Notes: generated by a model from the sequence alone, not told the origin. 64,000 bases of DNA from an uncultured Bacilli bacterium (GCA_944358825.1 CALVSA010000002.1:17707-81706); one strand, 5' to 3'. Shown: positions 8,954 through 23,701, counted from the stretch's first letter. Numbers and translations: made by a program.

Positions 8954-9395
8954 CTTTTCCCCTATTAATAATTGGCTTTATAATCATTCCTTCCATTAAT
9001 ATATTTAAAAACGATATTAAAATAGCTATAAAAAATGGAATGATAAAACCTGATATTTGAAAATTATCTCCTAAAATAAGACTTGTTAGATATAAAATAA
9101 ATAAATTAATTAATGGATAAAATAGTCCCATTGTTAGGGCTGTTATTGGTAATGTTATATAAAATAATATTGGTTTTATTGTTTGATTAAATACATAAAT
9201 AATTATAGCTGCAAGTAGCGCATATAAACCAAAATAATCAAGATTAATATATATTGATTTAAATATACTAGATACAACTATTAAAACAATTGCATAACAA
9301 ATCATATACAATAACCATTCAAATATTTTATTATTAATTAATTTTTTACTAACATTTTTTGGTTCAATGATAATATTTTTTTTCATCGCAATCAC
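8946..9395 (-). CDS. Small polytopic membrane protein (4-TM, holin-like/DUF360-like)
   Basis: 149 aa and hydrophobic. Its end overlaps the lgt start, so the two are likely co-transcribed. Confidence 0.4.
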   Translation of the reverse strand: MIAMKKNIIIEPKNVSKKLINNKIFEWLLYMICYAIVLIVVSSIFKSIYINLDYFGLYALLAAIIIYVFNQTIKPILFYITLPITALTMGLFYPLINLFILYLTSLILGDNFQISGFIIPFFIAILISFLNILMEGMIIKPIINRGKDG

Positions 9396-9439
9396 CTTAA
9401 TTATAATATCACATTTTTTTTATAAAATAAATATATGTA

Positions 9440-9469
9440 TATCAATTTTTACTATATTTGTGTTATAAT
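9440..9469 (+). promoter_or_regulatory. Putative promoter of the FemAB-family gene (extended -10 TGtTATAAT)
   Basis: TGTTATAAT at 9461..9469, about 24 nt upstream of the GGAGG RBS. Confidence 0.4.
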
Positions 9470-9492
9470 ATTATTGTTTGGAGGTACTATTT

Positions 9493-10713
9493 ATGACAAT
9501 TGTTGAACTTAATGAAATTCAATTTAGAAATTATTCGAGACTACATAGTAGCAGAAATTATTTACAAACGGTTGAGTATGCAAATATGCAAAAGATTTAT
9601 GGTTTTGATGTTAGCTATGTTGGTTTAGTTGATGTTGATGACAAATTACTCGCGGCCACGATGATTATTAATAGAAAAGTCTTTTCAAAGTTTTTATATG
9701 GAATATCTCCAGGTGGATTTTTAATTGATTATAATAATTATGATTTACTTAAAACTTTTGTTAAGCAATTAAAAAAATATTTATTTAAAAACGATTATAT
9801 TTATTTGCAAGTCGAACCAAGATGTATCATAAATAGTGCTAATAAGAAGATGGGAACTGTTTATAGTGCTACTTCTATTATTAACAATATTAAAAATTTA
9901 GGTGGAATATTTGTTGAGAATAATTTAAATAATAAATATGCAGTTTATTTGAGTGTAAAAGATGAAAAAAGTTTATATAATAATTTTAGTCGTAGTTTAA
10001 GAAGAACTATTCAAGATTGCAAAGATATGGGAATTGCTATTTATAAGGGTGATGAGTCTAATATCGATGAGTTTTATAATTTGATTAAGAAAAAAACTAG
10101 TCAAGAGATTGATTATTATTATAATTTTGCTAATTCGTTTAATAATCCTAATAACATGTTTGAGATTTATTTTGCTCGTCTAGAGCCACAAGCTTATTTA
10201 AATAACGCAACTCTTCTTTTAAATAAAGAACAAAAGAAAAACGAAAAATTAAATAAAAAGATGCAAAATAGAGTTGTAACTAATGGACTTCTTAATCAAA
10301 AAATATCTTCTGATAAAAGAGTTCAAAAATACAATAAGAAGTTAAAAGATGCGATTAATATGTATGATATGTATCCAAATGGAATTATTGTTAGTGCTTG
10401 TGCAATTATTAAGACTAATAACGAAATTACTTTTCTAATTGATGGTTATGAAGAAAAATTAAGAAAAATACGTGCTAGTGTTATGTTAAGATATGAATTA
10501 ATTAAAGAATTTAGAAAGCAAGGTTATTCTAAATTTAATTTAGGTTTCTTACCTAAAGATAAAAGTAATGTTAATTTTAAGCATATTTATGATGTTAGAA
10601 TGAACTTTGGTGCTAATTTTGTAGAATTTCCTGATGCATTTCATCTAGTTGTCAATAAGATTTTATATTCTTTACCTACTTTACCAAAAACACAATCACG
10701 AAGTGATTCGTAA
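9493..10713 (+). CDS. FemAB-family peptidoglycan interpeptide-bridge aminoacyltransferase
   Basis: About 406 aa. Its length and pattern fit the FemX/FemA family. A GGAGG RBS precedes ATG at 9493. Confidence 0.7.
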   Translation: MTIVELNEIQFRNYSRLHSSRNYLQTVEYANMQKIYGFDVSYVGLVDVDDKLLAATMIINRKVFSKFLYGISPGGFLIDYNNYDLLKTFVKQLKKYLFKNDYIYLQVEPRCIINSANKKMGTVYSATSIINNIKNLGGIFVENNLNNKYAVYLSVKDEKSLYNNFSRSLRRTIQDCKDMGIAIYKGDESNIDEFYNLIKKKTSQEIDYYYNFANSFNNPNNMFEIYFARLEPQAYLNNATLLLNKEQKKNEKLNKKMQNRVVTNGLLNQKISSDKRVQKYNKKLKDAINMYDMYPNGIIVSACAIIKTNNEITFLIDGYEEKLRKIRASVMLRYELIKEFRKQGYSKFNLGFLPKDKSNVNFKHIYDVRMNFGANFVEFPDAFHLVVNKILYSLPTLPKTQSRSDS

Positions 10714-10866: not shown

Positions 10867-11553
10867 CTATCTAATTATGGTACCTAATTTTTTTATGACT
10901 CTTTTTTCTATTCTTGATATATATGATTGAGAAATACCTAACATATCCGCGACTTCTTTTTGAGTGAGTTCTTTTTTACCGTTTAAGCCATATCTATATT
11001 CTATTATTTCTTTATCGCGACTGTTTAATTTTTCTATTTCTTCATATAGAATTTTTTTATCATTTTCATCTTCTAAACCTTTAGTTACAATATCACTATC
11101 TGTTCCTAATACATCTTCTAGATGTAATTCATTTCCTTCTGTATCAAAACTAAGACTATCTTCAAAACTTATTTCACCTTTTTTTCTTTTTATTTTACGA
11201 AGATACATTAATATTTCATTATCAATACAACGAGATACATAAGTTGCAAGTTTAATGTTTTTATCTAATTTATAGGTATTTACACCTTTTATTAGTCCAA
11301 TTGTACCAATTGAGACTAAATCTTCTAAATCTACTGTTGTATTTTCATATTTTTTAGCTAAAAATACTACTAATCGAAGATTATGTTCAATTAATTTATT
11401 TCTAGCTTCGATATCACCATTTTGGGATAATTCTACGTATTTTATCTCTTCTTCTTTATCAAGTGGTGGTGGTAATATATCACTACTTCCTACATAAAAA
11501 ATATAATTAAATTTTAAAAATAATTTTTTAATTAATTTGATTAATTTTTTCAT
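10867..11553 (-). CDS. sigE: Sporulation sigma factor sigma-E (pro-sigma-E)
   Basis: YVGSSDILPPPL pro-sequence signature followed by LIEHNLRLVV, LVSIGTIGLIKGV, KLATYVSRCIDNEILMYLRK and MLGISQSYISRIEKR. It is near-collinear with B. subtilis SigE and lies directly downstream of spoIIGA. Confidence 0.85.
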   Translation of the reverse strand: MKKLIKLIKKLFLKFNYIFYVGSSDILPPPLDKEEEIKYVELSQNGDIEARNKLIEHNLRLVVFLAKKYENTTVDLEDLVSIGTIGLIKGVNTYKLDKNIKLATYVSRCIDNEILMYLRKIKRKKGEISFEDSLSFDTEGNELHLEDVLGTDSDIVTKGLEDENDKKILYEEIEKLNSRDKEIIEYRYGLNGKKELTQKEVADMLGISQSYISRIEKRVIKKLGTIIR

Positions 11554-12350
11554 ATGATATCTTCCTCCAATAATTTAGCATTTAAAATACAATCAACTCC
11601 ATCTATTTTTATTTCTTCTTCACTAATTCCGATTAGAAAGTTTTTCTTCATACCTACTTTATCAATATAAACTTTTTCTGGAACAATACATTTTAATAAG
11701 CCATGATTATTTAGGGAATCATAAGGTACTATTAATATGTTTGTATCTAAATAATTGAAATTAATTTGATTTTTATTGACTAAAATAATTGGTCTTTTAA
11801 AATAAGGATCAATTAGTTTATTTCCTGTATCAAGAAAAGCTGTTAATGGTTTAATTGTTCCATCTTTTAGATAAATATCAATATTATAATATTTAGAGTA
11901 ATTATCTTTTAGTTCTTTAGCTTGTTTTACGTAAAGATAAATTATAATTGGACTTAAGAAGATAAGAACACTAAAGTTTAGGCTAAGTCCATTATGGTAA
12001 AATAGCATGCCTTCGTTTTTATAGCAAAGTTCTAGTTCTAACATGTATAAAAAACCTCCTAAAACGATGCTTGATGTATATAGGTAAAAAACATTTTTTA
12101 AAGTATATCTTATATCCTTATATCCAAAGACTATAATTACCATTAAAAAAGCTGTAAATACTTTTAAGAATATTAAGAAAAAAGAATTAAGATTAAATAG
12201 TAAACTTATAATAGAGATACTACCAATTAATGCTCCAATTATTATTTTTTTTAGATTTGTTTGTCTTCTTAAAATGAGCGCTGTTGAAAATATTAAAATT
12301 AAATCAATTAAAAAATTTAATAATAATACTACATCAATATATACTTTCAT
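11550..12350 (-). CDS. spoIIGA: Sigma-E processing peptidase SpoIIGA
   Basis: N-terminal multi-TM domain plus a C-terminal aspartic-protease motif FLDTGNKLIDP. The likely start is MKVYIDVVLLLNF, which is like B. subtilis MKIYLDVIWLLNF. Confidence 0.8.
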   Translation of the reverse strand: MKVYIDVVLLLNFLIDLILIFSTALILRRQTNLKKIIIGALIGSISIISLLFNLNSFFLIFLKVFTAFLMVIIVFGYKDIRYTLKNVFYLYTSSIVLGGFLYMLELELCYKNEGMLFYHNGLSLNFSVLIFLSPIIIYLYVKQAKELKDNYSKYYNIDIYLKDGTIKPLTAFLDTGNKLIDPYFKRPIILVNKNQINFNYLDTNILIVPYDSLNNHGLLKCIVPEKVYIDKVGMKKNFLIGISEEEIKIDGVDCILNAKLLEEDII

Positions 12351-12404
12351 ATAATCACCAAAAAAAGTATATAAAAAAAACAACATAAATTATGTCGTTT
12401 ATTG

Positions 12405-15199: not shown

Positions 15200-16339
15200 T
15201 TATATTTTAAAAACTAATAAATTAGGATTCATTATAAAGACTAAACCAAGGATAAATAAAATAAATCCACTAGTTAGTTTAGCTACTACTTTATGTTTTG
15301 ATTTTATTTTATCTACTTTTAATGAAGTAATTATTATTATTAATATAATAAGCTCATCAATTAAAAAGAATAAAATATAAACTAATGTATATAATATTTG
15401 TTCTAATATCGTTACATTATTAATAAATAAAGTCTGATTAAACATAGATACTAATCCAAAAGATGAAGTTAATTCTAATAAATTTAGACTAATTATTAAG
15501 CTAGTTATTCCAATTATGATTAGTCTTTTATTATTTATCTTTCTTTTACTAATAAGTGGTTTTAGACTAAATACACCACCAATTATTATAATTAGACCTA
15601 TTATAAATCTTAATATATCATTACTAGATATTATTGTTGCTAAATTAGGTAATATTATTAATGATATAAAATATATAATACTAGAATTTAAAATAAACGC
15701 TGATCCTAATATTAGCATTCTTTTTTTATCTTCTAAACTAATTAAAGTAGCAATTAAAAATATAAGTATCCATATAGTACAAGGATTAAATCCATCGATA
15801 CTTCCCATGATTAATGCACTAATGGGAAGAGATAAATCATTAGTGTTTATATTTCCTATTAAAGGTAGGCTTATGGTATAATTTCCATAATTTTCTAAAT
15901 AATTATCAATATCAGGATCATTGGCATTTACTTGATAAGTTGGTTTTTCTAAATTTTGTAAATCTGCTACTTTATCTACGTATCCATAATTAGAAAAATA
16001 TTCAATCGCCCCAATGAATTTTCTTTTAGAAGTTTCAGTACTAAAACCACTAAAAGTTTTATTTCCTATAATAGTAAAAGGTACACTTGTAATTTTCGTA
16101 TTATAAATTTCAGATACTTGTGATAATAACATACTATTTTTAGTATCACTAATTTCATATTTATAAACTCTTATATTATCATATCTATCTTCTAGTTCAT
16201 CCAATATTTTTGTTTCTTCTTTACAATGTGGACAACTATTTGAATGAAATAAATAAATATTTACTAAATTTCTACTGTCTGCATCTACATTTGGTATAAG
16301 TATGAATAAACTTAATATAAATATTATTATTTTCTTCAT
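15200..16339 (-). CDS. Thiol-disulfide oxidoreductase: secreted thioredoxin-fold (CPHC) domain fused to a polytopic membrane domain
   Basis: Signal peptide, SNSCPHCKEE CxxC motif, and a C-terminal domain of about 200 aa with 5-6 TM segments. Confidence 0.5.
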   Translation of the reverse strand: MKKIIIFILSLFILIPNVDADSRNLVNIYLFHSNSCPHCKEETKILDELEDRYDNIRVYKYEISDTKNSMLLSQVSEIYNTKITSVPFTIIGNKTFSGFSTETSKRKFIGAIEYFSNYGYVDKVADLQNLEKPTYQVNANDPDIDNYLENYGNYTISLPLIGNINTNDLSLPISALIMGSIDGFNPCTIWILIFLIATLISLEDKKRMLILGSAFILNSSIIYFISLIILPNLATIISSNDILRFIIGLIIIIGGVFSLKPLISKRKINNKRLIIIGITSLIISLNLLELTSSFGLVSMFNQTLFINNVTILEQILYTLVYILFFLIDELIILIIIITSLKVDKIKSKHKVVAKLTSGFILFILGLVFIMNPNLLVFKI

Positions 16340-16343
16340 ATAA

Positions 16344-17468
16344 TCACTTTAAATTAAGTTTTTGATAACATTTATCAAATATTTCTAAAAATTTAATTAT
16401 TTCTTCTTTAGTTGTTTGATAAGATAGACTAATTCTAATAGAAGAAGATGCTAATTTATCATCTTGAGTTAGAGCTTTTATAGGTCTAGATATACTATCT
16501 ATTTTAGAACAAGCACTTTTAGTAGATACATATATATCATCTTCTTCTAGAGCATGAATAAAAGTTTCTGGTTTTATATTTATAATACTAATATTAATAG
16601 TATGTTTAATTGATTTATCAGTACTATTTATATGAACATTGGGATATGTTTTTAATTTATTAATAATTAGTTCATTTAGACTTTTTACTTTTTCATAATT
16701 TTCATCAATTTTATCTATTATTAATTCTAAAGCTTTTTTTAGAGATACAATTAAACCTAATGCTGGAGTTCCACTACGATAAATAGTAGTTGATTTTCCT
16801 CCGTGAATTAATGGTTCTAATTCGATATTTTCTTTTTTTATTAAAATTCCTATTCCTTTTAATCCATAAAATTTATGAGCTGAAATACTAGCTAGATCAA
16901 TATTTGTAAAATCAACTTTTACTTTACCAATTGCTTGAGTACAATCAACATGAAAATAGCACTTGGGATATTTTTTTATTATTTTTCCTATTTCTTCTAC
17001 TGGTTGTCTAATACCTAATTCACTATCTACACATGATATTGAAACTAATAGAGTATCATTAGTTAGTTTATTTTCTAAATCTTCTAAATTAACTGTTCCA
17101 TCTTTATTTAAATCAACGTAATCAATAATAAAACCTAATTTTTCTAAATAATTACAAGTCTCAATAATTGAAGAATGTTCTAATTTAGTTGTAATTATGT
17201 GATTAGCTCTATTTTTATATTTAAAACAAATACCTTTTAAGGCTAAATTATTAGCTTCACTAGCAGATGATGTATAAATTATTTCTTTTGGTTTTATATT
17301 TAAATATTTAGCTATATTCTTGGTTGCATAATCTTCTAGTTCCTTTGATTTTAAACCTAGTTTATGTAGAGAATTACTATTAGCAAAATACTCTTGTGAT
17401 ACTTTAGAGAAAACATCTATTACTTCCCTTTGGGGAGGAGTTGTTGCTGAATAATCTAAATATATCAT
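16344..17468 (-). CDS. Cysteine desulfurase / class V aminotransferase (NifS/IscS-like)
   Basis: 374 aa with the PLP-lysine motif SAHKFYGLKG and a fold-type I pattern. Confidence 0.75.
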   Translation of the reverse strand: MIYLDYSATTPPQREVIDVFSKVSQEYFANSNSLHKLGLKSKELEDYATKNIAKYLNIKPKEIIYTSSASEANNLALKGICFKYKNRANHIITTKLEHSSIIETCNYLEKLGFIIDYVDLNKDGTVNLEDLENKLTNDTLLVSISCVDSELGIRQPVEEIGKIIKKYPKCYFHVDCTQAIGKVKVDFTNIDLASISAHKFYGLKGIGILIKKENIELEPLIHGGKSTTIYRSGTPALGLIVSLKKALELIIDKIDENYEKVKSLNELIINKLKTYPNVHINSTDKSIKHTINISIINIKPETFIHALEEDDIYVSTKSACSKIDSISRPIKALTQDDKLASSSIRISLSYQTTKEEIIKFLEIFDKCYQKLNLK

Positions 17469-17512
17469 AAAAACACCTCTTTTTCTTAACTATTTTATCA
17501 TAAAAGAAAAAA

Positions 17513-17980
17513 TTATAAAACTATTTTTTTTAATAATTTTATAATTTCATTTATAACTTCTTGTTTACACTCCAATCTATTTTTCTTTTCTAATTTTATT
17601 TTTAGCTCGTAATATTTATCTAAATCTTTATCATAAATACTTACATAAACTACATCATTATCAGAATATAAGTTATATTTATCAACTTTATTTAATTTAC
17701 CAGTTATACCAACAGCATAATTAGAATTAGTAAAATTAGCTATAGTATAAGCCATATTATTAGCTACTTCTTGACTATAAACTGAATATTTATCTATTAA
17801 ACTAGCATTTATCTTCATTTTTATTTTAAACTCATTAGAATAAGTTACTGCTCCAAATTTAAAGACTTCACTTGCTCCTTCAATATTAGTAATTTCATTT
17901 GCTAAAGCACCACCTGTACAAGATTCCATGATAGATATTGTTTTGTTTAAGCTAGTTAATTTTTTAACAATCTCTTGCAT
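17513..17980 (-). CDS. CinA C-terminal domain protein (PncC-like NMN amidohydrolase)
   Basis: 155 aa with the CinA_C signature MESCTGGALANEIT. Confidence 0.65.
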   Translation of the reverse strand: MQEIVKKLTSLNKTISIMESCTGGALANEITNIEGASEVFKFGAVTYSNEFKIKMKINASLIDKYSVYSQEVANNMAYTIANFTNSNYAVGITGKLNKVDKYNLYSDNDVVYVSIYDKDLDKYYELKIKLEKKNRLECKQEVINEIIKLLKKIVL

Positions 17981-19005
17981 TATTTATTTAAATCAACCAT
18001 TATTTTAATCGAATTATTAGTATTTGATAATAATCTATCACAAGCATCTTGTGTATCTTCTAGAGAAATTATTTCATCTAAAAATTTTAAGACGTCGATT
18101 TTTTTAGTTGATATTAACTCAATACATCTTATAAATTCTTCTTTAGTATAGGCAATTGAACCAATTATCTTAAGTTCATTCATGACCGCTAGTACTGTTG
18201 GAATAGTAATTGGAGTTGGTGATACTCCTACTAAAACAACGCTTGAGCCTGGTTTAGCAAAAGTAAGGGCACTGCTAACTGCACTAGAATTTCCACAGCA
18301 TTCAATTGTTTTATCAAATGTAAACATATTGTTTTTAACATAATTATTGTATTCTTCTTCATCAGCCACATTTACAAATTCATCAACTACTTCTAATTTT
18401 AAAGCTTTGTTTGCTCTATTTTTATTAGTTTCTAATAAAGTTATCGAACTTGCTCCTGCTAGTTTGGCAAACATGGCACTAACAAGTCCAATTATTCCGC
18501 CTCCTATTATTAGAACTTTATCTCCTATTTCAATATCTGCTAAATTAACAGCGTGCAAGCCAACTGCTGTTGGTTCGACCATGGCTGCTTCTTCATCAGT
18601 TATATTATCATCTAATTTTATGACCATATCACTTCTTAACTTAATTTCTTGGCTTAAAGCTCCTGGATAATCTAGTGATAAACCAACGGCATGTGTCCAA
18701 GTTTCTTTGCAATAATGAATGTTTCCATTTAAACAAGCTTCACAATTTAGACAAGGAGATAATGGTAGAGCTGTTACTCTATCACCTACTTTTAAGTCTG
18801 TTCTATTTCCTGGATCAATTACAGTCCCACTAAATTCGTGTCCCATGATTAAACCAATTGGATTTCCTAATTCAAAATTATGTAGATCTGATCCACATAT
18901 TCCACATTTGCTTACTTTAATTATTACATGGTTATTATCTGCAATAGGTTCATTAGTTGTTGTTAATTCTAATTTCTTTTTATCTTTTATTTTTACACAC
19001 TTCAT
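17980..19005 (-). CDS. Zn-dependent alcohol/polyol dehydrogenase (MDR family; sorbitol/threonine dehydrogenase-like)
   Basis: CGICGSDLH and GHEFSGTV zinc motifs and a GxGxxG Rossmann motif. A GGAGG RBS is present. Confidence 0.8.
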   Translation of the reverse strand: MKCVKIKDKKKLELTTTNEPIADNNHVIIKVSKCGICGSDLHNFELGNPIGLIMGHEFSGTVIDPGNRTDLKVGDRVTALPLSPCLNCEACLNGNIHYCKETWTHAVGLSLDYPGALSQEIKLRSDMVIKLDDNITDEEAAMVEPTAVGLHAVNLADIEIGDKVLIIGGGIIGLVSAMFAKLAGASSITLLETNKNRANKALKLEVVDEFVNVADEEEYNNYVKNNMFTFDKTIECCGNSSAVSSALTFAKPGSSVVLVGVSPTPITIPTVLAVMNELKIIGSIAYTKEEFIRCIELISTKKIDVLKFLDEIISLEDTQDACDRLLSNTNNSIKIMVDLNK

Positions 19006-19016
19006 TTTCTACCTCC

Positions 19017-19098
19017 ATTTTCTTTATTATACTACAATATTTGATGTTAATAAATAAAATTTAGTAATTTATATAAAAAAACTAACAATTAAGTTAGT
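19017..19098. repeat. 82-bp direct repeat copy 1 (terminator hairpin plus -10 promoter), identical to 23620..23701
   Basis: Identical over 82 bp. It contains ACTAAC-aattaa-GTTAGT followed by a T-run on the minus strand, and TAgTATAAT just upstream of the ADH RBS. Confidence 0.9.
19026..19060 (-). promoter_or_regulatory. Putative promoter of the ADH gene inside repeat copy 1
   Basis: Minus-strand TATAAT at 19026..19031, about 15 nt upstream of GGAGGT and the ATG. Confidence 0.4.
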
Positions 19099-19101
19099 AT
19101 T

Positions 19102-21054
19102 TTATAGATTTCCTTTATAGAAATATATTTTCATTGCTTCTTCTGTATAAGTAGGTTTTGATATATCTATGTTAAGATAATTTGCTATATAATGGATTAG
19201 ATATTGTACTGCTACTAATAAGTCATATTCACATAGTATTCCATCATATCTACTTTCTATTATTAAAGCTTTGTTATTAGACAAATAATTTAGTAATTTT
19301 TCTTCGTATAAACTGGTACTTTTTTGTTTTAAATATATACTGTTTTTATTATTTAAATGTTCGTAATTTATGAATCTTCCATGTGAGAAATTTTTCTTTT
19401 CATGGACTAGACAATTATAAATGCCAGACTCTATTATTTTACTTTCTAAATCAATAGCAGACGATTCTGTAAAATCTCCCATAAAAATATTGAATTGATT
19501 ACCATTTTCTAACATCTCATTAAATTTTATTATATTGTTATTAAAATATTGTTTCCAATAATTAATACATTCTTTTATAAATTCTTCAACATTATTCATT
19601 TCTTTTTCTTCGAAATATAGCTTTAAAAACAAACTAGCGGGCACTAATGAACCCTCAAATGATAAAAAACCTCTTTCTTTTGATTTATTTGTTTTTGTAC
19701 GATATGAAATAATATTATTTTTATCTATTTTCGTTTGTTCTATAATTTTTTGTATTTCTCCCTTAGTTATTATGTATTTATTGTCATTTTTTATCGCGAA
19801 AGTGGAAACATATAAATCGTTAGTTGTACCTGAATATGTAAATAGAAAAGCTTTATCAACTTGAGAATTATTTCTATAATAAACATCTCTAGGCAATAAC
19901 GATAACGTTGTTATTCCATACACATCATTTATTATTTTAGATGCTATTTTAGCAGGGGCAAAAGACCCTCCTGTACCAATAAAGATACTATTTTTTAAAT
20001 TCAAAAAATCTATTGCTTTTATTTTGTTATATGCATCACTTTTAAGTGCGTTAATTACTCTTATTTCTAAATTATTTATATTAATATTACATCTTTTTAT
20101 TTTTTTTCTAATTGATAATTCAAAATTTTGACAAGAGCATGTATTTTTTATCTTTTTTATTTTATAAAGTCCTTGTATATGACCTCTTGCTCCAAGCTTT
20201 TTTACTACTTTTTTAGTTAATTTTGTTGCTTTTTCAAATGTTTCATCGATAAAATTTTTATCAATTATATAATCTTTTTTTATATACTCGCTAATGAAGC
20301 AAGAGAAAAATGCATCACCAGCACCAGTAGAATCAAGTTCTTCCGCTGGATTTGTAAGTTCTTTTGTAATTTTTGTATTATCAAAAGCAAAATCAGAACC
20401 TTTTTTCCCTCTTGTTACTATGATTAGCTTGGGATTAAACATATTATATATTTCTTCTAGTTTTTTTATTGAGTATCTTTTTTTTAAATATTTTTCTACT
20501 CTTTCATTTAAATTAATAATTTCAAATTTATTTTTAATTTTTTCTATAATTTCTTCATCTTTATAATTGTCTAGCTCAAAGTACTGTCCTAAATCCAGCA
20601 TTTTCTTGTTATGAGATTTATCTATTATTGTTTGATTTTTTAAATTTAAATTATCAAATACTAATATATCGTCTATATTTATTTTTTTTAATATATCTTC
20701 TACATCAATATTACTTTCTTCATACCAATTTTTTTGATTACATATAGGACATCTTTTTTTTGATGTAAATTCTAATTTCTCATTTTTCTCAAAATAAGAA
20801 ACATGAAAACATCTGGTCTTTAAATCTTTAATTATTTCTATATTATCTATATTTACACCTATATCTTCTAAACTTTTAATAGCTATTTTCCCTGCCATAT
20901 CATCTCCGCACACTCCATAGACAGCTGTTGGTATATTCATTGTAGCAATATTTGCAACGATATTGTGCGAAGTCATACCTCCGTTTATACCAACTAGTTT
21001 ATTATCTTTATAATAAAAATCTGTAACTAAATCACCAATACTAATTATTTTCAT
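19102..21054 (-). CDS. Fusion protein: PfkB-family sugar/nucleoside kinase (N-terminus) plus SIS phosphosugar-binding/isomerase domain (C-terminus)
   Basis: N-terminal ribokinase-like fold with the DSTGAGDAF anion-hole motif. C-terminal SIS motifs FIGTGGSFAPAKIAS and FLFTYSGTTND. A Cys cluster CPICN...CSCQN lies between them. Confidence 0.55.
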   Translation of the reverse strand: MKIISIGDLVTDFYYKDNKLVGINGGMTSHNIVANIATMNIPTAVYGVCGDDMAGKIAIKSLEDIGVNIDNIEIIKDLKTRCFHVSYFEKNEKLEFTSKKRCPICNQKNWYEESNIDVEDILKKINIDDILVFDNLNLKNQTIIDKSHNKKMLDLGQYFELDNYKDEEIIEKIKNKFEIINLNERVEKYLKKRYSIKKLEEIYNMFNPKLIIVTRGKKGSDFAFDNTKITKELTNPAEELDSTGAGDAFFSCFISEYIKKDYIIDKNFIDETFEKATKLTKKVVKKLGARGHIQGLYKIKKIKNTCSCQNFELSIRKKIKRCNININNLEIRVINALKSDAYNKIKAIDFLNLKNSIFIGTGGSFAPAKIASKIINDVYGITTLSLLPRDVYYRNNSQVDKAFLFTYSGTTNDLYVSTFAIKNDNKYIITKGEIQKIIEQTKIDKNNIISYRTKTNKSKERGFLSFEGSLVPASLFLKLYFEEKEMNNVEEFIKECINYWKQYFNNNIIKFNEMLENGNQFNIFMGDFTESSAIDLESKIIESGIYNCLVHEKKNFSHGRFINYEHLNNKNSIYLKQKSTSLYEEKLLNYLSNNKALIIESRYDGILCEYDLLVAVQYLIHYIANYLNIDISKPTYTEEAMKIYFYKGNL

Positions 21055-21096
21055 TTCTTACTCCTTATATAATTATTAATTTATTAACTTTACATT

Positions 21097-21124
21097 TTTG
21101 ACAATCTTAATTTTTTTTGTCAAA
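21097..21124. promoter_or_regulatory. Perfect 8-bp inverted repeat TTTGACAA-N12-TTGTCAAA between the two fusion-enzyme genes
   Basis: Seen directly in the sequence. It could be an operator, since it contains a TTGACA -35-like hexamer, or an intercistronic hairpin. Confidence 0.35.
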
Positions 21125-21151
21125 CTATTACATTTATTATCACACTATATC

Positions 21152-23473
21152 TTATTTTAATCTTTTTACATATTTTACCTCACTATTTTGAGAATAATCA
21201 CCATTTTTTGCTAAACATTCTAATATCTTCCTTCTGTTGAGATCAAAAATTCCCAACGAATCTTTATATGGATCTAAACTATTTGGATCTTTCCAACTAT
21301 AGGGACTTGGAAAATACAATCCTTGAATAAAACTAAAAAAGTATTTATAATCAACAGCGCCATGATTTGGCATAAACATTTGACTAATTCTGTTAACACC
21401 CGGATATCTAACGACAACAATTTTATCAATATTTATTCCTATATCATATAAACTTGTTATAGCAAGTTGCATTGTTTTTCCAGTTAGTAAATTATCATCC
21501 ATTAAAATGCATTTTTTATTTTTATCTATTTCTTTTTCTTCTATGCCACCTGCTTTAAATACATCAAAAAAGCGCAAATCTAACGACTGTTTTTTTGAAT
21601 AGCCGGAAACATTTTTATTAAAATTTAAAATCAATATATCTTCTAATTTATTGTTTATTGACTTTGTTATTATTGGAAGTTCTATTCCACCATAGCTCAA
21701 CCCACAAACTCCTTTATTTAATATTTCACAATCTTTACTTAAAGTCAAATAACATGTAATAAAATTCTCTGCAAAATTATCAATTTCACGATAAGCTCTA
21801 AAATCTTTTGAATAATTTTCTTTTCTTTTTTCATTAATAAACATCATTTTAAATTTTTCTGTAATAAAAATTGCATTGTTTATTAAGCAATATACATCTT
21901 TTATATTTATTTTATATTTTTTATCAAAAGATATCTTTTGCATCATTTGACTAACAAACAATAGAATACTATATATTTTAAATATTAAACTTTGATTATT
22001 AACTTTTTGCAAATTTACTAGCAAACTTTTTTGTGGGTTAACATTTATTATCTGCTGATTTAGTAATATAAGCAACTGATTTCTTATATTATCTATTAGG
22101 GCTAAAACCATTTTTGTATCGTTTAAATCCTCTATATATTGAAAATGTTTAATGGCATCTAATGCTTCTAAATAAAATTTCTTATTATTTTCTAACCAAT
22201 TATATACCATTTCTTTTGTTGTTACATCTTCTCCTGTTATTTCATTATGAAATCTTCTGGATAAAAAATAATAATATACTTGTGATCCTCTTAACAAAAT
22301 ATTTTCGTTATCAAACATTGAATATATCATATAGGAAGATACTTGTTTATTCCAAAATATTTTTAATGGATTATTATCATCTATACATATCCACTCATAC
22401 ATGGGTATTTTTATACTTCCACTTGACTTATCATATAATCCATATATACCATCCACTAGCTTGAACTTATCATTAATAATATTATTAAAAACCTGTACCC
22501 GCTGGTTTTTACCTAAATTCATTTGTTTTTCTATTTTTGAATATCCCTTAATATAATCATTTTCAATTGCGTGTACTAAACAAATTGTTGGTAAAAGTTT
22601 AACTTTATTTAATAATAATATAGTAGCATCAACACCAGTTATTATTTGTTTGTCATCATTTATTACTGGAAAACATTTGTCGTTAACTTTACTAGTTTTA
22701 TTAACACTAAATCCTTGTGAACAGTTAAGCATACTATAATCATTTCCTAATTCATCTCCACAGTCACCAATTCTTAACATCGAACTTTCTGGTATTCCAA
22801 TAATTCTTTCAGCGGTCATAATTGCTTTACTTTTAGTTGCTGCGCCTATTTGAATAATTTTATTACCATTGAATATTCCAATACTCATGTTTATGTTTTC
22901 TGAATTTATCATTTTTATAGAATCTTTTATCAAATTCAAAATATAATCATCTATTGTTTTGTTATTAGAATGTATTTCTATTATAATATTAATAATTTTT
23001 TTTAATTTTTTATCTATTGAATGTGTAACATTACAATACTTTGACATTCTTTTGTCTGTTAGTTTTTTTATTAATTCACTATTTACGTTTTTTAAGTTTT
23101 CTAAATCTGATGATGAGATAATATATTTATCTTGATCAAATACTTTTGTGCTATTTAAAGTTGTAGTGAAAATTCTTGCACCATCATTTGTGATAGCATA
23201 CAATCTAGACAATTGCTTATTACTAACTTTATATTTTATTTTTAATACTTCAATTATTTCTTTTTCTAATCTTTGCAATACTGTTTCGCCTCTACCAGTA
23301 ATAAACACAACTGGAATGTAATCTTTTAATATTTCGGCTAATATCGGTATAATCCTTTGGTCTATTTTTATTGAATTATTCTCTGTCAACGTTCCATCGA
23401 CATCTAAACATACTGCATTATATTTTTGACTTAATGCTTTATTATAATTTTGTATTAATTTTTCTTCTAACAT
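21152..23473 (-). CDS. Fusion protein: HAD-IIB (Cof-type) phosphatase N-terminus, central domain of unknown function, C-terminal type I phosphoribosyltransferase domain
   Basis: HAD motif I CLDVDGTLTEN. C-terminal PRPP-binding motif KCILMDDNLLTGKTM with GLSYGGIELP upstream. Total 773 aa. Confidence 0.55.
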   Translation of the reverse strand: MLEEKLIQNYNKALSQKYNAVCLDVDGTLTENNSIKIDQRIIPILAEILKDYIPVVFITGRGETVLQRLEKEIIEVLKIKYKVSNKQLSRLYAITNDGARIFTTTLNSTKVFDQDKYIISSSDLENLKNVNSELIKKLTDKRMSKYCNVTHSIDKKLKKIINIIIEIHSNNKTIDDYILNLIKDSIKMINSENINMSIGIFNGNKIIQIGAATKSKAIMTAERIIGIPESSMLRIGDCGDELGNDYSMLNCSQGFSVNKTSKVNDKCFPVINDDKQIITGVDATILLLNKVKLLPTICLVHAIENDYIKGYSKIEKQMNLGKNQRVQVFNNIINDKFKLVDGIYGLYDKSSGSIKIPMYEWICIDDNNPLKIFWNKQVSSYMIYSMFDNENILLRGSQVYYYFLSRRFHNEITGEDVTTKEMVYNWLENNKKFYLEALDAIKHFQYIEDLNDTKMVLALIDNIRNQLLILLNQQIINVNPQKSLLVNLQKVNNQSLIFKIYSILLFVSQMMQKISFDKKYKINIKDVYCLINNAIFITEKFKMMFINEKRKENYSKDFRAYREIDNFAENFITCYLTLSKDCEILNKGVCGLSYGGIELPIITKSINNKLEDILILNFNKNVSGYSKKQSLDLRFFDVFKAGGIEEKEIDKNKKCILMDDNLLTGKTMQLAITSLYDIGINIDKIVVVRYPGVNRISQMFMPNHGAVDYKYFFSFIQGLYFPSPYSWKDPNSLDPYKDSLGIFDLNRRKILECLAKNGDYSQNSEVKYVKRLK

Positions 23474-23619
23474 AGCTACCTCTCAATTATTTTTTCAAAC
23501 TTTTTATTGTTTTGAACTCTTCATTCAGTATCGAATATTACTCCGTCAAAATCTATTAAAATTTTCTTATTATTCACGTTTTTCCATCACTCCTTTTATT
23601 TTTAAAATCGTTTTAAATA

Positions 23620-23701
23620 ATTTTCTTTATTATACTACAATATTTGATGTTAATAAATAAAATTTAGTAATTTATATAAAAAAACTAACAATTAAGTTAG
23701 T
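23620..23701. repeat. 82-bp direct repeat copy 2, identical to 19017..19098
   Basis: Identical sequence. The terminator hairpin overlaps the stop codon of the ABC-2 permease gene. Confidence 0.9.

Follow-up and report, generated by a model that had tools for sequence, protein, structure and literature searches.

A mobile gene cassette of gut Bacilli that pairs a HAD-X-phosphoribosyltransferase fusion with a PfkB-SIS fusion

A 64,000-nucleotide stretch of DNA from an uncultured Bacilli bacterium (GCA_944358825.1, CALVSA010000002.1:17707-81706; hereafter the window, with positions counted from its first letter) carries two neighbouring genes at 19,102 to 23,473 that form the core of a mobile cassette present in more than 100 species of gut bacteria. 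One encodes a 773-amino-acid (aa) protein in which a HAD phosphatase, a family-specific domain that we call X and a phosphoribosyltransferase (PRT) are fused (HAD-X-PRT), and the other a 650-aa protein in which a PfkB kinase is fused to a SIS region (PfkB-SIS). We take the cassette to be a biosynthetic or conflict module centred on 5-phosphoribosyl-1-pyrophosphate (PRPP) and nucleotides, with a core domain that had not been recognised and a puzzling way of inserting. We tentatively favour, while holding it to be somewhat short of probable, the reading that it carries out inducible, PRPP-consuming synthesis of a nucleoside-like (N-ribosyl) toxin or signal used in conflict. A preliminary description of the window had proposed four activities in two polypeptides (isomerase, kinase, phosphatase and PRPP-dependent transferase), and the domain evidence bears out this predicted combination.

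The window is chromosomal DNA of about 25% G+C, and its spoIIGA and sigE genes (10867-12386) point to a spore-forming Firmicute. Proteins identical to the pair are present on human-gut metagenome contigs. Both open reading frames are real genes; full-length homologues of the proteins, with 48-74% identity, number in the hundreds. Translation places the reading frames and the four motifs quoted in the preliminary description exactly where it had put them. In the 773-aa protein CLDVDGTLTEN spans aa 22-32 and ILMDDNLLTGKTM spans aa 655-667; in the 650-aa protein DSTGAGDAF spans aa 241-249 and FIGTGGSFAPAKIAS spans aa 358-372. The two genes are organised as follows.

21152-23473, minus strand: whole gene for the HAD-IIB / X / type I PRT fusion, 773 aa (open reading frame, translation, homologues, AlphaFold model)
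22589-23473, minus strand: HAD-IIB (Cof/ISN1-like) phosphatase domain, aa ~1-295 (motifs D24xD26GT, T59GR, K214 and G236D...GND245)
21749-22588, minus strand: family-specific helical X domain, aa ~296-575 (motifs LLRG..YYYF, LDNxRN and YSKDFRAYREIDNFAENF; AlphaFold model)
21152-21748, minus strand: type I PRT-fold domain, aa ~576-773 (YGGIELP pyrophosphate (PPi) loop; D659-D660-N-L-L-T-G-K-T PRPP motif; profile searches)
19102-21054, minus strand: whole gene for the PfkB kinase / Cys-rich linker / probable double-SIS fusion, 650 aa (open reading frame, translation, linkage in relatives)
20170-21054, minus strand: PfkB (ribokinase/nucleoside-kinase-like) domain, aa ~1-295 (GG switch, NxxE, D241-x-T-G-A-G-D247; Pfam PfkB)
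20065-20169, minus strand: linker with C306/C308 (Cys conservation in distant homologues)
19102-20064, minus strand: SIS region, aa ~331-650, GlmS/AgaS/FrlB-like (GxGxS, YSGTT; second half ESK..E...HEKKNFSHGRF; PDB profile)

The 773-aa protein is modelled well by AlphaFold (predicted local distance difference test, pLDDT, 88.4; predicted template-modelling score 0.87). Its N-terminal domain has the four HAD motifs and the type IIB cap fold that define the HAD-IIB (Cof-type) class, and its best fold match is ISN1, a 5'-nucleotidase; the HAD-IIB model TIGR01484 gives 29.9 bits on the window protein, under its cut-off. A single-sequence search of this protein against the PDB returned nothing useful. 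With a profile built from 16 sequences (C-terminal 480 residues), 35 of the 37 PDB matches have the type I PRT fold; PyrR, purine PRTs, ComF and PRPP synthetase are among them, with PRPP synthetase 1u9y (E 1.8e-3) ranked first of all. HAD and PRT catalytic motifs are conserved throughout the aligned homologues, among them the PRPP motif D659-D660-N-L-L-T-G-K-T and the PPi loop Y-G-G-I-E-L-P. The assignment of a type I PRT fold to the C-terminal domain is supported by these matches, and PRPP-dependent transfer is predicted from the motifs. A distant orthologue, P0274, clears the Pfam cut-offs for both Hydrolase_3 and Pribosyltran (26.6 versus 26.3 bits for the latter). Both the HAD and the PRT calls of the preliminary description are upheld by the profiles, the AlphaFold model and P0274, although the window protein itself is sub-threshold for each. 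The roughly 280 aa between these domains (about 296-575) have no sequence match in Pfam or the PDB, in agreement with the earlier observation of a central domain lacking recognisable motifs, and are modelled confidently as a mostly helical domain. X carries strongly conserved polar motifs (LLRG..YYYF, LDNxRN and RAYREIDNFAENF), and there are stand-alone proteins of about 470 aa in which X and the PRT are conserved jointly.

The kinase call for the 650-aa protein is secure: Pfam PfkB (PF00294) matches aa 30-290 with 49.7 bits against a cut-off of 25.8, and the best PDB profile match is the nucleoside kinase MJ0406 (E 3e-15), with ribokinases also close. The kinase residues G25-G26, N181-x-x-E184 and D241...D247 are present; the core set (D12, G25, G26, D241, G244-D247) is invariant down to 24% identity, and N181 and E184 are invariant solely within the gut clade. 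NCBIfam models for fructoselysine-6-kinase, fructokinase, ribokinase and ribose-1-phosphate kinase all match far under their equivalog cut-offs (fructoselysine 6-kinase, NF007321, 44.2 versus 247 bits). Among distant homologues C102, C105 and C306 are invariant and the second Cys pair is a CxxC, a pattern which suggests that C102-P-x-C105 and C306/C308 form a predicted four-Cys metal site joining the kinase to the SIS region. The AlphaFold model of this protein is poor (pLDDT 64, with the C-terminal part under 50) and was not used for structural claims.

Single-sequence searching of the PDB with the 650-aa protein gave weak PfkB matches only. A profile of the C-terminal 335 aa (40 sequences) matched SIS proteins and nothing else, led by double-SIS proteins of about 340-375 aa: 1j5x (E 4e-4, or 4e-6 when a broader family profile is used), the GlmS isomerase domain 3tbf, and 2aml. 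The 25-bit Pfam SIS cut-off is exceeded by orthologues at about 25% identity (31.1 bits in locus L088, 26.5 bits in L093). From its length and motif the region probably holds two SIS repeats; an hhalign comparison of its halves was non-significant (E 0.39), though the expected motif was aligned. The SIS domain proposed earlier is thus recovered through profiles and orthologues but not by Pfam in the window protein, and by type it belongs with the double-SIS proteins GlmS, AgaS and FrlB rather than with GmhA. PfkB is the only domain of the window proteins to reach a curated Pfam threshold; there SIS, PRT and HAD-IIB lie under the Pfam or NCBIfam cut-offs, while distant orthologues clear SIS, Hydrolase_3 and Pribosyltran.

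A scan of relatives with one genome per species found them in at least 107 species, and 80 loci were retained, almost all from metagenome-assembled genomes of uncultured gut Bacilli (e.g. Ca. Faecisoma, Onthousia, Caccenecus, Coprosoma, CAG:302, CAG:321 and CAG:472). PfkB-SIS lies immediately 3' of HAD-X-PRT on the same strand in 77 of the 80; the contigs of the other three end earlier, so the co-occurrence of the two genes holds in 77 of 77 testable loci, and it extends to relatives at about 25% identity. The pair is a tightly spaced two-gene operon. De novo clustering of neighbours in the 80 loci revealed two further conserved genes on the 5' side: an HTH_11 plus WYL regulator of about 197 aa in 72 of the 80 (WYL E 8e-15), and a small HAD-like protein of about 160-175 aa in 65, with a DFDG motif and weak NT5C similarity, whose profile found nothing informative in the PDB. 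The gene order is constant: WYL, small HAD, HAD-X-PRT, PfkB-SIS. The two genes of the preliminary description are therefore an obligate pair, but they belong to a larger mobile cassette of four genes with a WYL regulator, which that description had missed and of which the window holds a degenerate copy. There the WYL gene is absent and the small HAD is an internally deleted remnant, from which direct reading of the sequence shows about 125 codons to be deleted.

23494-23577, minus strand: small-HAD remnant, consisting of 18 N-terminal codons, a stop and an out-of-frame C-terminal tail (tblastn with the 65 orthologues matches only 23577-23494)

Accessory genes enter the cassette at a hot spot between the two large genes, either a CAT-family (chloramphenicol-acetyltransferase-like) acetyltransferase and an alpha/beta-hydrolase esterase (11-14 loci) or a DHH/DHHA1 protein with an APH-like kinase. 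In the window the two large genes are separated by 97 nt (21055-21151), against about 8-12 nt in most relatives; this gap has the same position as the hot spot and holds the inverted-repeat-like TTGACAAAAAAAATTAAGATTGTCAA. In about ten gut loci (L029, L027, L034, L035, L025, L026, L064, L065 and L077) the cassette is adjoined, on either side, by AMP-binding (ANL) enzymes in tandem, each about 600 aa long and belonging to families f7 and f8; these may be functionally linked to it or may mark an insertion hot spot. Conserved linkage to the cassette extends to no transporter and to no regulator of a sugar type (GntR, LacI, RpiR).

The unit is an insertion cassette. In the window a perfect 82-bp repeat pair encloses exactly the small-HAD remnant and the two large genes.

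23620-23701, no strand assigned: upstream copy of the 82-bp direct repeat, taking in the stop codon of the ABC-2 permease gene together with a terminator hairpin and a region with TATAAT (copies 100% identical, spacing 4603 bp)
19017-19098, no strand assigned: downstream copy of the 82-bp direct repeat, beginning 3 nt past the PfkB-SIS stop, ahead of the Zn-dependent alcohol dehydrogenase gene (repeat search)
L060, 8961-9246 and 14276-14561: perfect repeat
L093, 9618-9659 and 19410-19451: perfect repeat, 42 bp

Because the repeat combines the permease stop codon, the terminator and a TATAAT-containing part that also precedes the alcohol dehydrogenase gene, an intergenic region was duplicated on insertion. 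The window cassette is probably transcribed from the duplicated copy of this host promoter-like region; a promoter and terminator scan of the window stayed at background level in its AT-rich DNA. Exact flanking repeats of 29-286 bp occur in 9 of the 53 relatives with 1 kb on both sides, against never more than 17 bp in flank-versus-interior controls, and mismatch-tolerant repeats above the control range in 16 of 51, against 1 of 51 and 0 of 51 in controls. The repeats are target-derived and differ in sequence between sites: one is the 3' end of SecA, others are terminator hairpins, and another is 286 bp from the 3' end of a gene. They usually take in the stop codon and terminator of the upstream gene. 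The right junction lies no more than a few nucleotides from the stop codon of PfkB-SIS at seven independent sites, and in two of them the repeat supplies the last codons. The cassette encodes no recombinase. A protein search with the alcohol dehydrogenase found no empty site; four metagenome contigs break inside the 82-bp repeat.

An exhaustive profile search extends the family to 188 representative clusters at E < 1e-30, in three groups: full-length relatives of about 800 aa from non-gut metagenomes, stand-alone X-PRT proteins of about 470 aa, and X-PRT fusions to other domains. In distant full-length loci (L087-L090, L092, L093; about 25% identity) a PfkB(-SIS) gene is again directly 3'. The fusions include an N-terminal TIR domain (partner gene a PfkB without SIS), an N-terminal metallophosphoesterase, an N-terminal APH-like kinase (weak TCAD9 match) and a C-terminal TyrRS/TrpRS-like domain. 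In P0278 HAD-X-PRT is fused to a C-terminal PRAI and RPE-like barrel, and in the L096 lineage a HAD and a PRAI stand in place of PfkB-SIS. FN3K/APH-like kinases are recurrent partners. Because the tailoring partners vary among clusters (PfkB-SIS, PRAI, APH-like kinase, CAT, aminoacyl-tRNA-synthetase-like domains), X-PRT is the invariant core, a constant scaffold enzyme.

Defence islands and clusters resembling those for natural products, rather than core carbohydrate metabolism, are the setting of the wider family. In L092 (279-14168) the HAD-X-PRT/PfkB pair comes straight after a complete type III-A csm operon (cas10 to cas6) and is followed by a 211-aa ShosT/PsyrT-like protein, which may be a CRISPR-ancillary association in this one lineage. 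L093-L095 share one island, bounded by the 42-bp repeat, in which the pair accompanies an HNH-like protein, an SNF2 helicase (ZorD/DpdE/DrmD-like) and an N6A methyltransferase. Other contexts are WYL with AbiEi/AbiEii and SocA (L090), HicA, ParE and Phd (L089), Bub/ThiF with an AAA ATPase (L096), and a reverse transcriptase with an HD dGTPase-like protein (L082). In L090 the small HAD is replaced by a 312-aa stand-alone HAD-IIB paralogue (9073-10011; E 9e-30 to the HAD-X-PRT N terminus). Viral collections held no relatives, and BFVD gave HAD-level matches only.

Among plasmids, the sole match in the collection is pRML02 of Bacillus cereus HN001 (locus L104, record 99718-115042). Its biosynthetic-looking cluster comprises a second metG for methionyl-tRNA synthetase (MetRS), DUF6005, an aminotransferase, X-PRT, a CatA-like acetyltransferase, an NT5C-like HAD, an ACP, a pyridoxal-phosphate-dependent decarboxylase, an adenylate-forming enzyme and an ABC transporter; the X-PRT (WP_063539171) is stand-alone and annotated as hypothetical. 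Seven of the cluster's genes are shared with a metagenomic locus (L085) on a conjugative element. The CAT, APH-like and NT5C-like genes are orthologous, at 29-44% identity, to those inserted in or beside gut cassettes. In a third locus (L083) a YgjV-type transporter and a gene for TyrRS are linked with an X-PRT-TyrRS-like fusion, a CAT, a HAD and an APH/FN3K-like kinase. An additional copy of an aminoacyl-tRNA synthetase is a classic marker of self-resistance, and such copies in these clusters therefore hint at aminoacyl-nucleotide mimics; the pRML02 cluster is a candidate producer of a MetRS-directed nucleoside-like compound. The positions of the CAT genes are listed below.

L001, L003, L006, L009, L013, L014, L030, L044, L068, L076: CAT between the two large genes
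L083, 10726-11355: CAT beside X-PRT in a distant cluster
L085, 9386-10042: CAT beside X-PRT in a distant cluster
L104, 11341-12009: CAT beside X-PRT in a distant cluster

Four very distant types of cluster thus have a CAT-family gene beside X-PRT, in many cases accompanied by an esterase, which suggests an acetylation/deacetylation step on the pathway product, not a stray resistance gene.

From the domain identities, conserved catalytic motifs, obligate pairing, WYL linkage, mobility and genomic contexts described above, we infer substrates, an order of steps and a biological role for the cassette. The type I PRT, with X as an acceptor-binding hood, would join PRPP to a nitrogen nucleophile (an amine or base) to give a 5'-phosphoribosyl adduct, from which the fused ISN1/Cof-like HAD-IIB domain would strip the 5'-phosphate to leave a riboside. 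PfkB and its fused GlmS/FrlB-type SIS would then re-phosphorylate and isomerise the ribosyl-amine or ketoamine moiety by Amadori-type chemistry, resulting either in maturation of the product or in an inactivation that acts as immunity. PfkB-SIS is assigned to the ribosyl/ketoamine part because of the recurrent PRAI substitution, the FN3K/APH-like kinases and the GlmS/FrlB affinity of its SIS; PRAI catalyses an Amadori rearrangement. The product would be a toxin or signal in biological conflict, with phage, mobile elements or competitors, and not an envelope precursor. A PRPP-derived ribosylated product or base conjugate, as the preliminary description had suggested, stays the best guess.

Several observations weigh against this proposal. 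In the window proteins themselves Pfam Pribosyltran is sub-threshold (18.2 versus 26.3 bits, E 1.6e-3) and Pfam SIS (PF01380) goes undetected in the 650-aa protein. A kinase and a phosphatase that worked on the same ribose would seem to undo each other's effect, unless their substrates are different intermediates. The two-gene core has no conserved exporter or resistance gene linked to it. The gut-clade cassettes are flanked mostly by housekeeping genes, with about 5 of 147 flanking protein families matching candidate defence models; the defence-island contexts amount to about six of eight informative distant loci, which is not a statistical survey; and PADLOC 2.0 has no family matching either core protein at E <= 0.01. 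A defence role would be drawn from the neighbourhoods of distant relatives only. Finally, identity between genera is 55-74% for both proteins, a housekeeping-like rate that would also fit a core metabolic role.

The strongest competing account is a metabolite-depleting pair of the abortive-infection or toxin-antitoxin kind, in which HAD-X-PRT would be a ShosT-like toxin draining PRPP or nucleotides through its PRT and nucleotidase, and PfkB-SIS would hold it in check until infection or stress. The toxin ShosT combines a hydrolase with a PRTase, and its toxicity depends on PRPP and requires PRPP binding (PMC12961424), and modules of HAD with calcineurin-CE deplete deoxynucleoside triphosphates (PMC12871103), while our family has metallophosphoesterase- and TIR-fused members, a tightly spaced operon, a linked WYL regulator and distant copies in defence islands. 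Like ShosT (ShosTA), PsyrT and the retron III-A PRTase, the window's HAD-X-PRT fuses a hydrolase to a non-canonical type I PRTase. It matches none of the PADLOC ShosT, PsyrT or retron PRTase models, however, is 773 aa long with an X domain, and has a kinase-isomerase as partner in place of a DprA-like antitoxin. Clusters in which X-PRT stands with tailoring enzymes and exporters favour the making of a product, and strong toxicity is argued against because the window retains both genes, with the tested catalytic motifs intact, but no regulator. We consider depletion unlikely. Breakdown or salvage of ribosides or Amadori compounds derived from the gut, with PfkB-SIS acting like FrlD/FrlB (kinase plus deglycase) and the PRT and HAD recycling the released base or amine, would suit small-genome gut hosts, the high conservation across genera, the GlmS/FrlB/AgaS type of the SIS and the sugar-kinase models matched by PfkB. 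FrlD/FrlB and GlmS/AgaS indeed bring a PfkB kinase together with a double-SIS enzyme for amino-ketose phosphates, and the best SIS matches fall in this group. Here, though, kinase and SIS are fused by a Cys-rich linker and always coupled to a PRT, no match could be made for the conserved catalytic Glu/His arrangement, and every NCBIfam score is far under its equivalog cut-off (44 versus 247 bits for FrlD). The regulator is a WYL protein, the transporters and GntR, LacI or RpiR regulators of a nutrient operon are not conserved, and mobile-cassette behaviour, TIR, metallophosphoesterase and PRAI fusions and defence-island contexts are atypical of one, which makes catabolism quite improbable in our judgement.

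The L093-L095 island, which unites the pair with an HNH-like protein, a helicase and a methyltransferase, invites the idea of a precursor pathway for DNA or RNA base modification tied to a restriction-like system; it is one lineage only, and gut cassettes carry no nuclease, helicase, methylase or transglycosylase, so that we rate this very unlikely. Still less credible is a nucleotide-sugar-like precursor pathway for the cell envelope, modelled on ADP-heptose synthesis (GmhA/HldE/GmhB) as in the preliminary description. A formal set of isomerase, kinase and phosphatase is present and the NCBIfam HldE kinase-domain model gives a weak match (E 1.4e-10, 40.8 bits versus a 345-bit cut-off), but the analogy fails: the SIS is GlmS/FrlB-type, there is no nucleotidyltransferase, the HAD is a capped, ISN1-like IIB enzyme and no envelope genes are linked. 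Membership of the GmhA-type isomerases was likewise rejected, the best matches being the double-SIS proteins 1j5x, GlmS and 2aml.

For synthesis of a nucleoside-like product, one of the closest precedents is the Ter-linked PRTase and HAD module predicted by Anantharaman, Iyer and Aravind to make a nucleoside-like metabolite (summarised in PMC7824862). The two share a PRTase, a HAD phosphoesterase, a predicted nucleoside or nucleotide derivative and a stress or phage-resistance context, and the HAD of the Ter-carrying Acinetobacter phage ME3 ranks second among viral fold matches (E 4.5e-4). That module is likewise no more than a prediction, and the present cassette differs in its X domain, its HAD fusion and its PfkB-SIS partner; none of terB, terD, terY or ATP-grasp occurs in the 80 gut loci or the distant loci, where a lone TerC lies just outside the L093 island. 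TrpD/TrpF and HisG/HisA offer the parallel of a PRT followed by an Amadori isomerase. Family members fused to or followed by a PRAI imply an N-phosphoribosyl-amine product that is then isomerised, although TrpD is not a type I PRT, SIS replaces PRAI in the cassette and no tryptophan or histidine genes are linked. The dual-domain ribofuranosyltransferases of the Whitfield laboratory reportedly join a PRT (gPRT) to a HAD-type phosphoribosyl-phosphatase (PRP), and resemble our protein in PRPP-dependent transfer followed by removal of the 5'-phosphate by a fused HAD. Membership of this gPRT-PRP group was rejected because none appears in the top fold lists and the PRT here is of type I.

Beyond the superfamily level, then, every membership test was negative (PADLOC, NCBIfam equivalogs, Ter linkage, ribofuranosyltransferase). 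PADLOC run on the pair and eight neighbours called no system, its sole strong match being the generic one of IscS to SspA/DndA models. The few names under which these proteins are recorded are all generic (such as "hypothetical protein" or "HAD family hydrolase"). No description of the cassette was found in the literature on PRTase-CE and on PfkB/PRTase/HAD/SIS/defence combinations. The preliminary description's view that the combination is undescribed thus agrees with Pfam, the NCBIfam equivalogs, PADLOC and the literature searched.

The genes on the 3' side of the window cassette (15200-19005, minus strand) encode the Zn-dependent alcohol dehydrogenase, a CinA/PncC-type domain that stands alone (155 aa), an IscS-like cysteine desulfurase, and a protein of 379 aa without a Pfam match. 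None of the window neighbours (ABC transporters, alcohol dehydrogenase, CinA, IscS, gyrB-like, spoIIGA/sigE) is kept beside the pair in related loci, and a link to NAD salvage through CinA was dropped for this reason.

The boldest form of our proposal, which we regard as doubtful, is a new family of chemical anti-phage or anti-competitor systems, in which the WYL regulator would sense damage or a nucleotide ligand and an X-PRT of a previously unrecognised kind would use PRPP together with an amine or base to make a nucleoside analogue derived from a ribosylamine; the recombinase-free cassette, with variable target duplications of 29-286 bp and a right end at the last PfkB-SIS codon, would in addition represent a new insertion mechanism. 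Some 1,400 residues of enzyme with intact catalytic motifs, present in at least 107 species of gut Bacilli from humans and animals and in many environmental lineages, have so far gone without a name, and the X domain at their core without a family model. How small islands move is a separate puzzle posed by this repeat-bounded cassette. The pRML02 cluster, with its second MetRS, points to compounds that target aminoacyl-tRNA synthetases and offers a cultivable entry point, and the pairing of a PRT with an isomerase, whether SIS or PRAI, suggests N-ribosyl-amine or Amadori chemistry outside tryptophan and histidine biosynthesis. If the product is indeed a nucleoside-like toxin or signal, the cassette would add a class of PRPP-based chemical defence or antibiotic biosynthesis.

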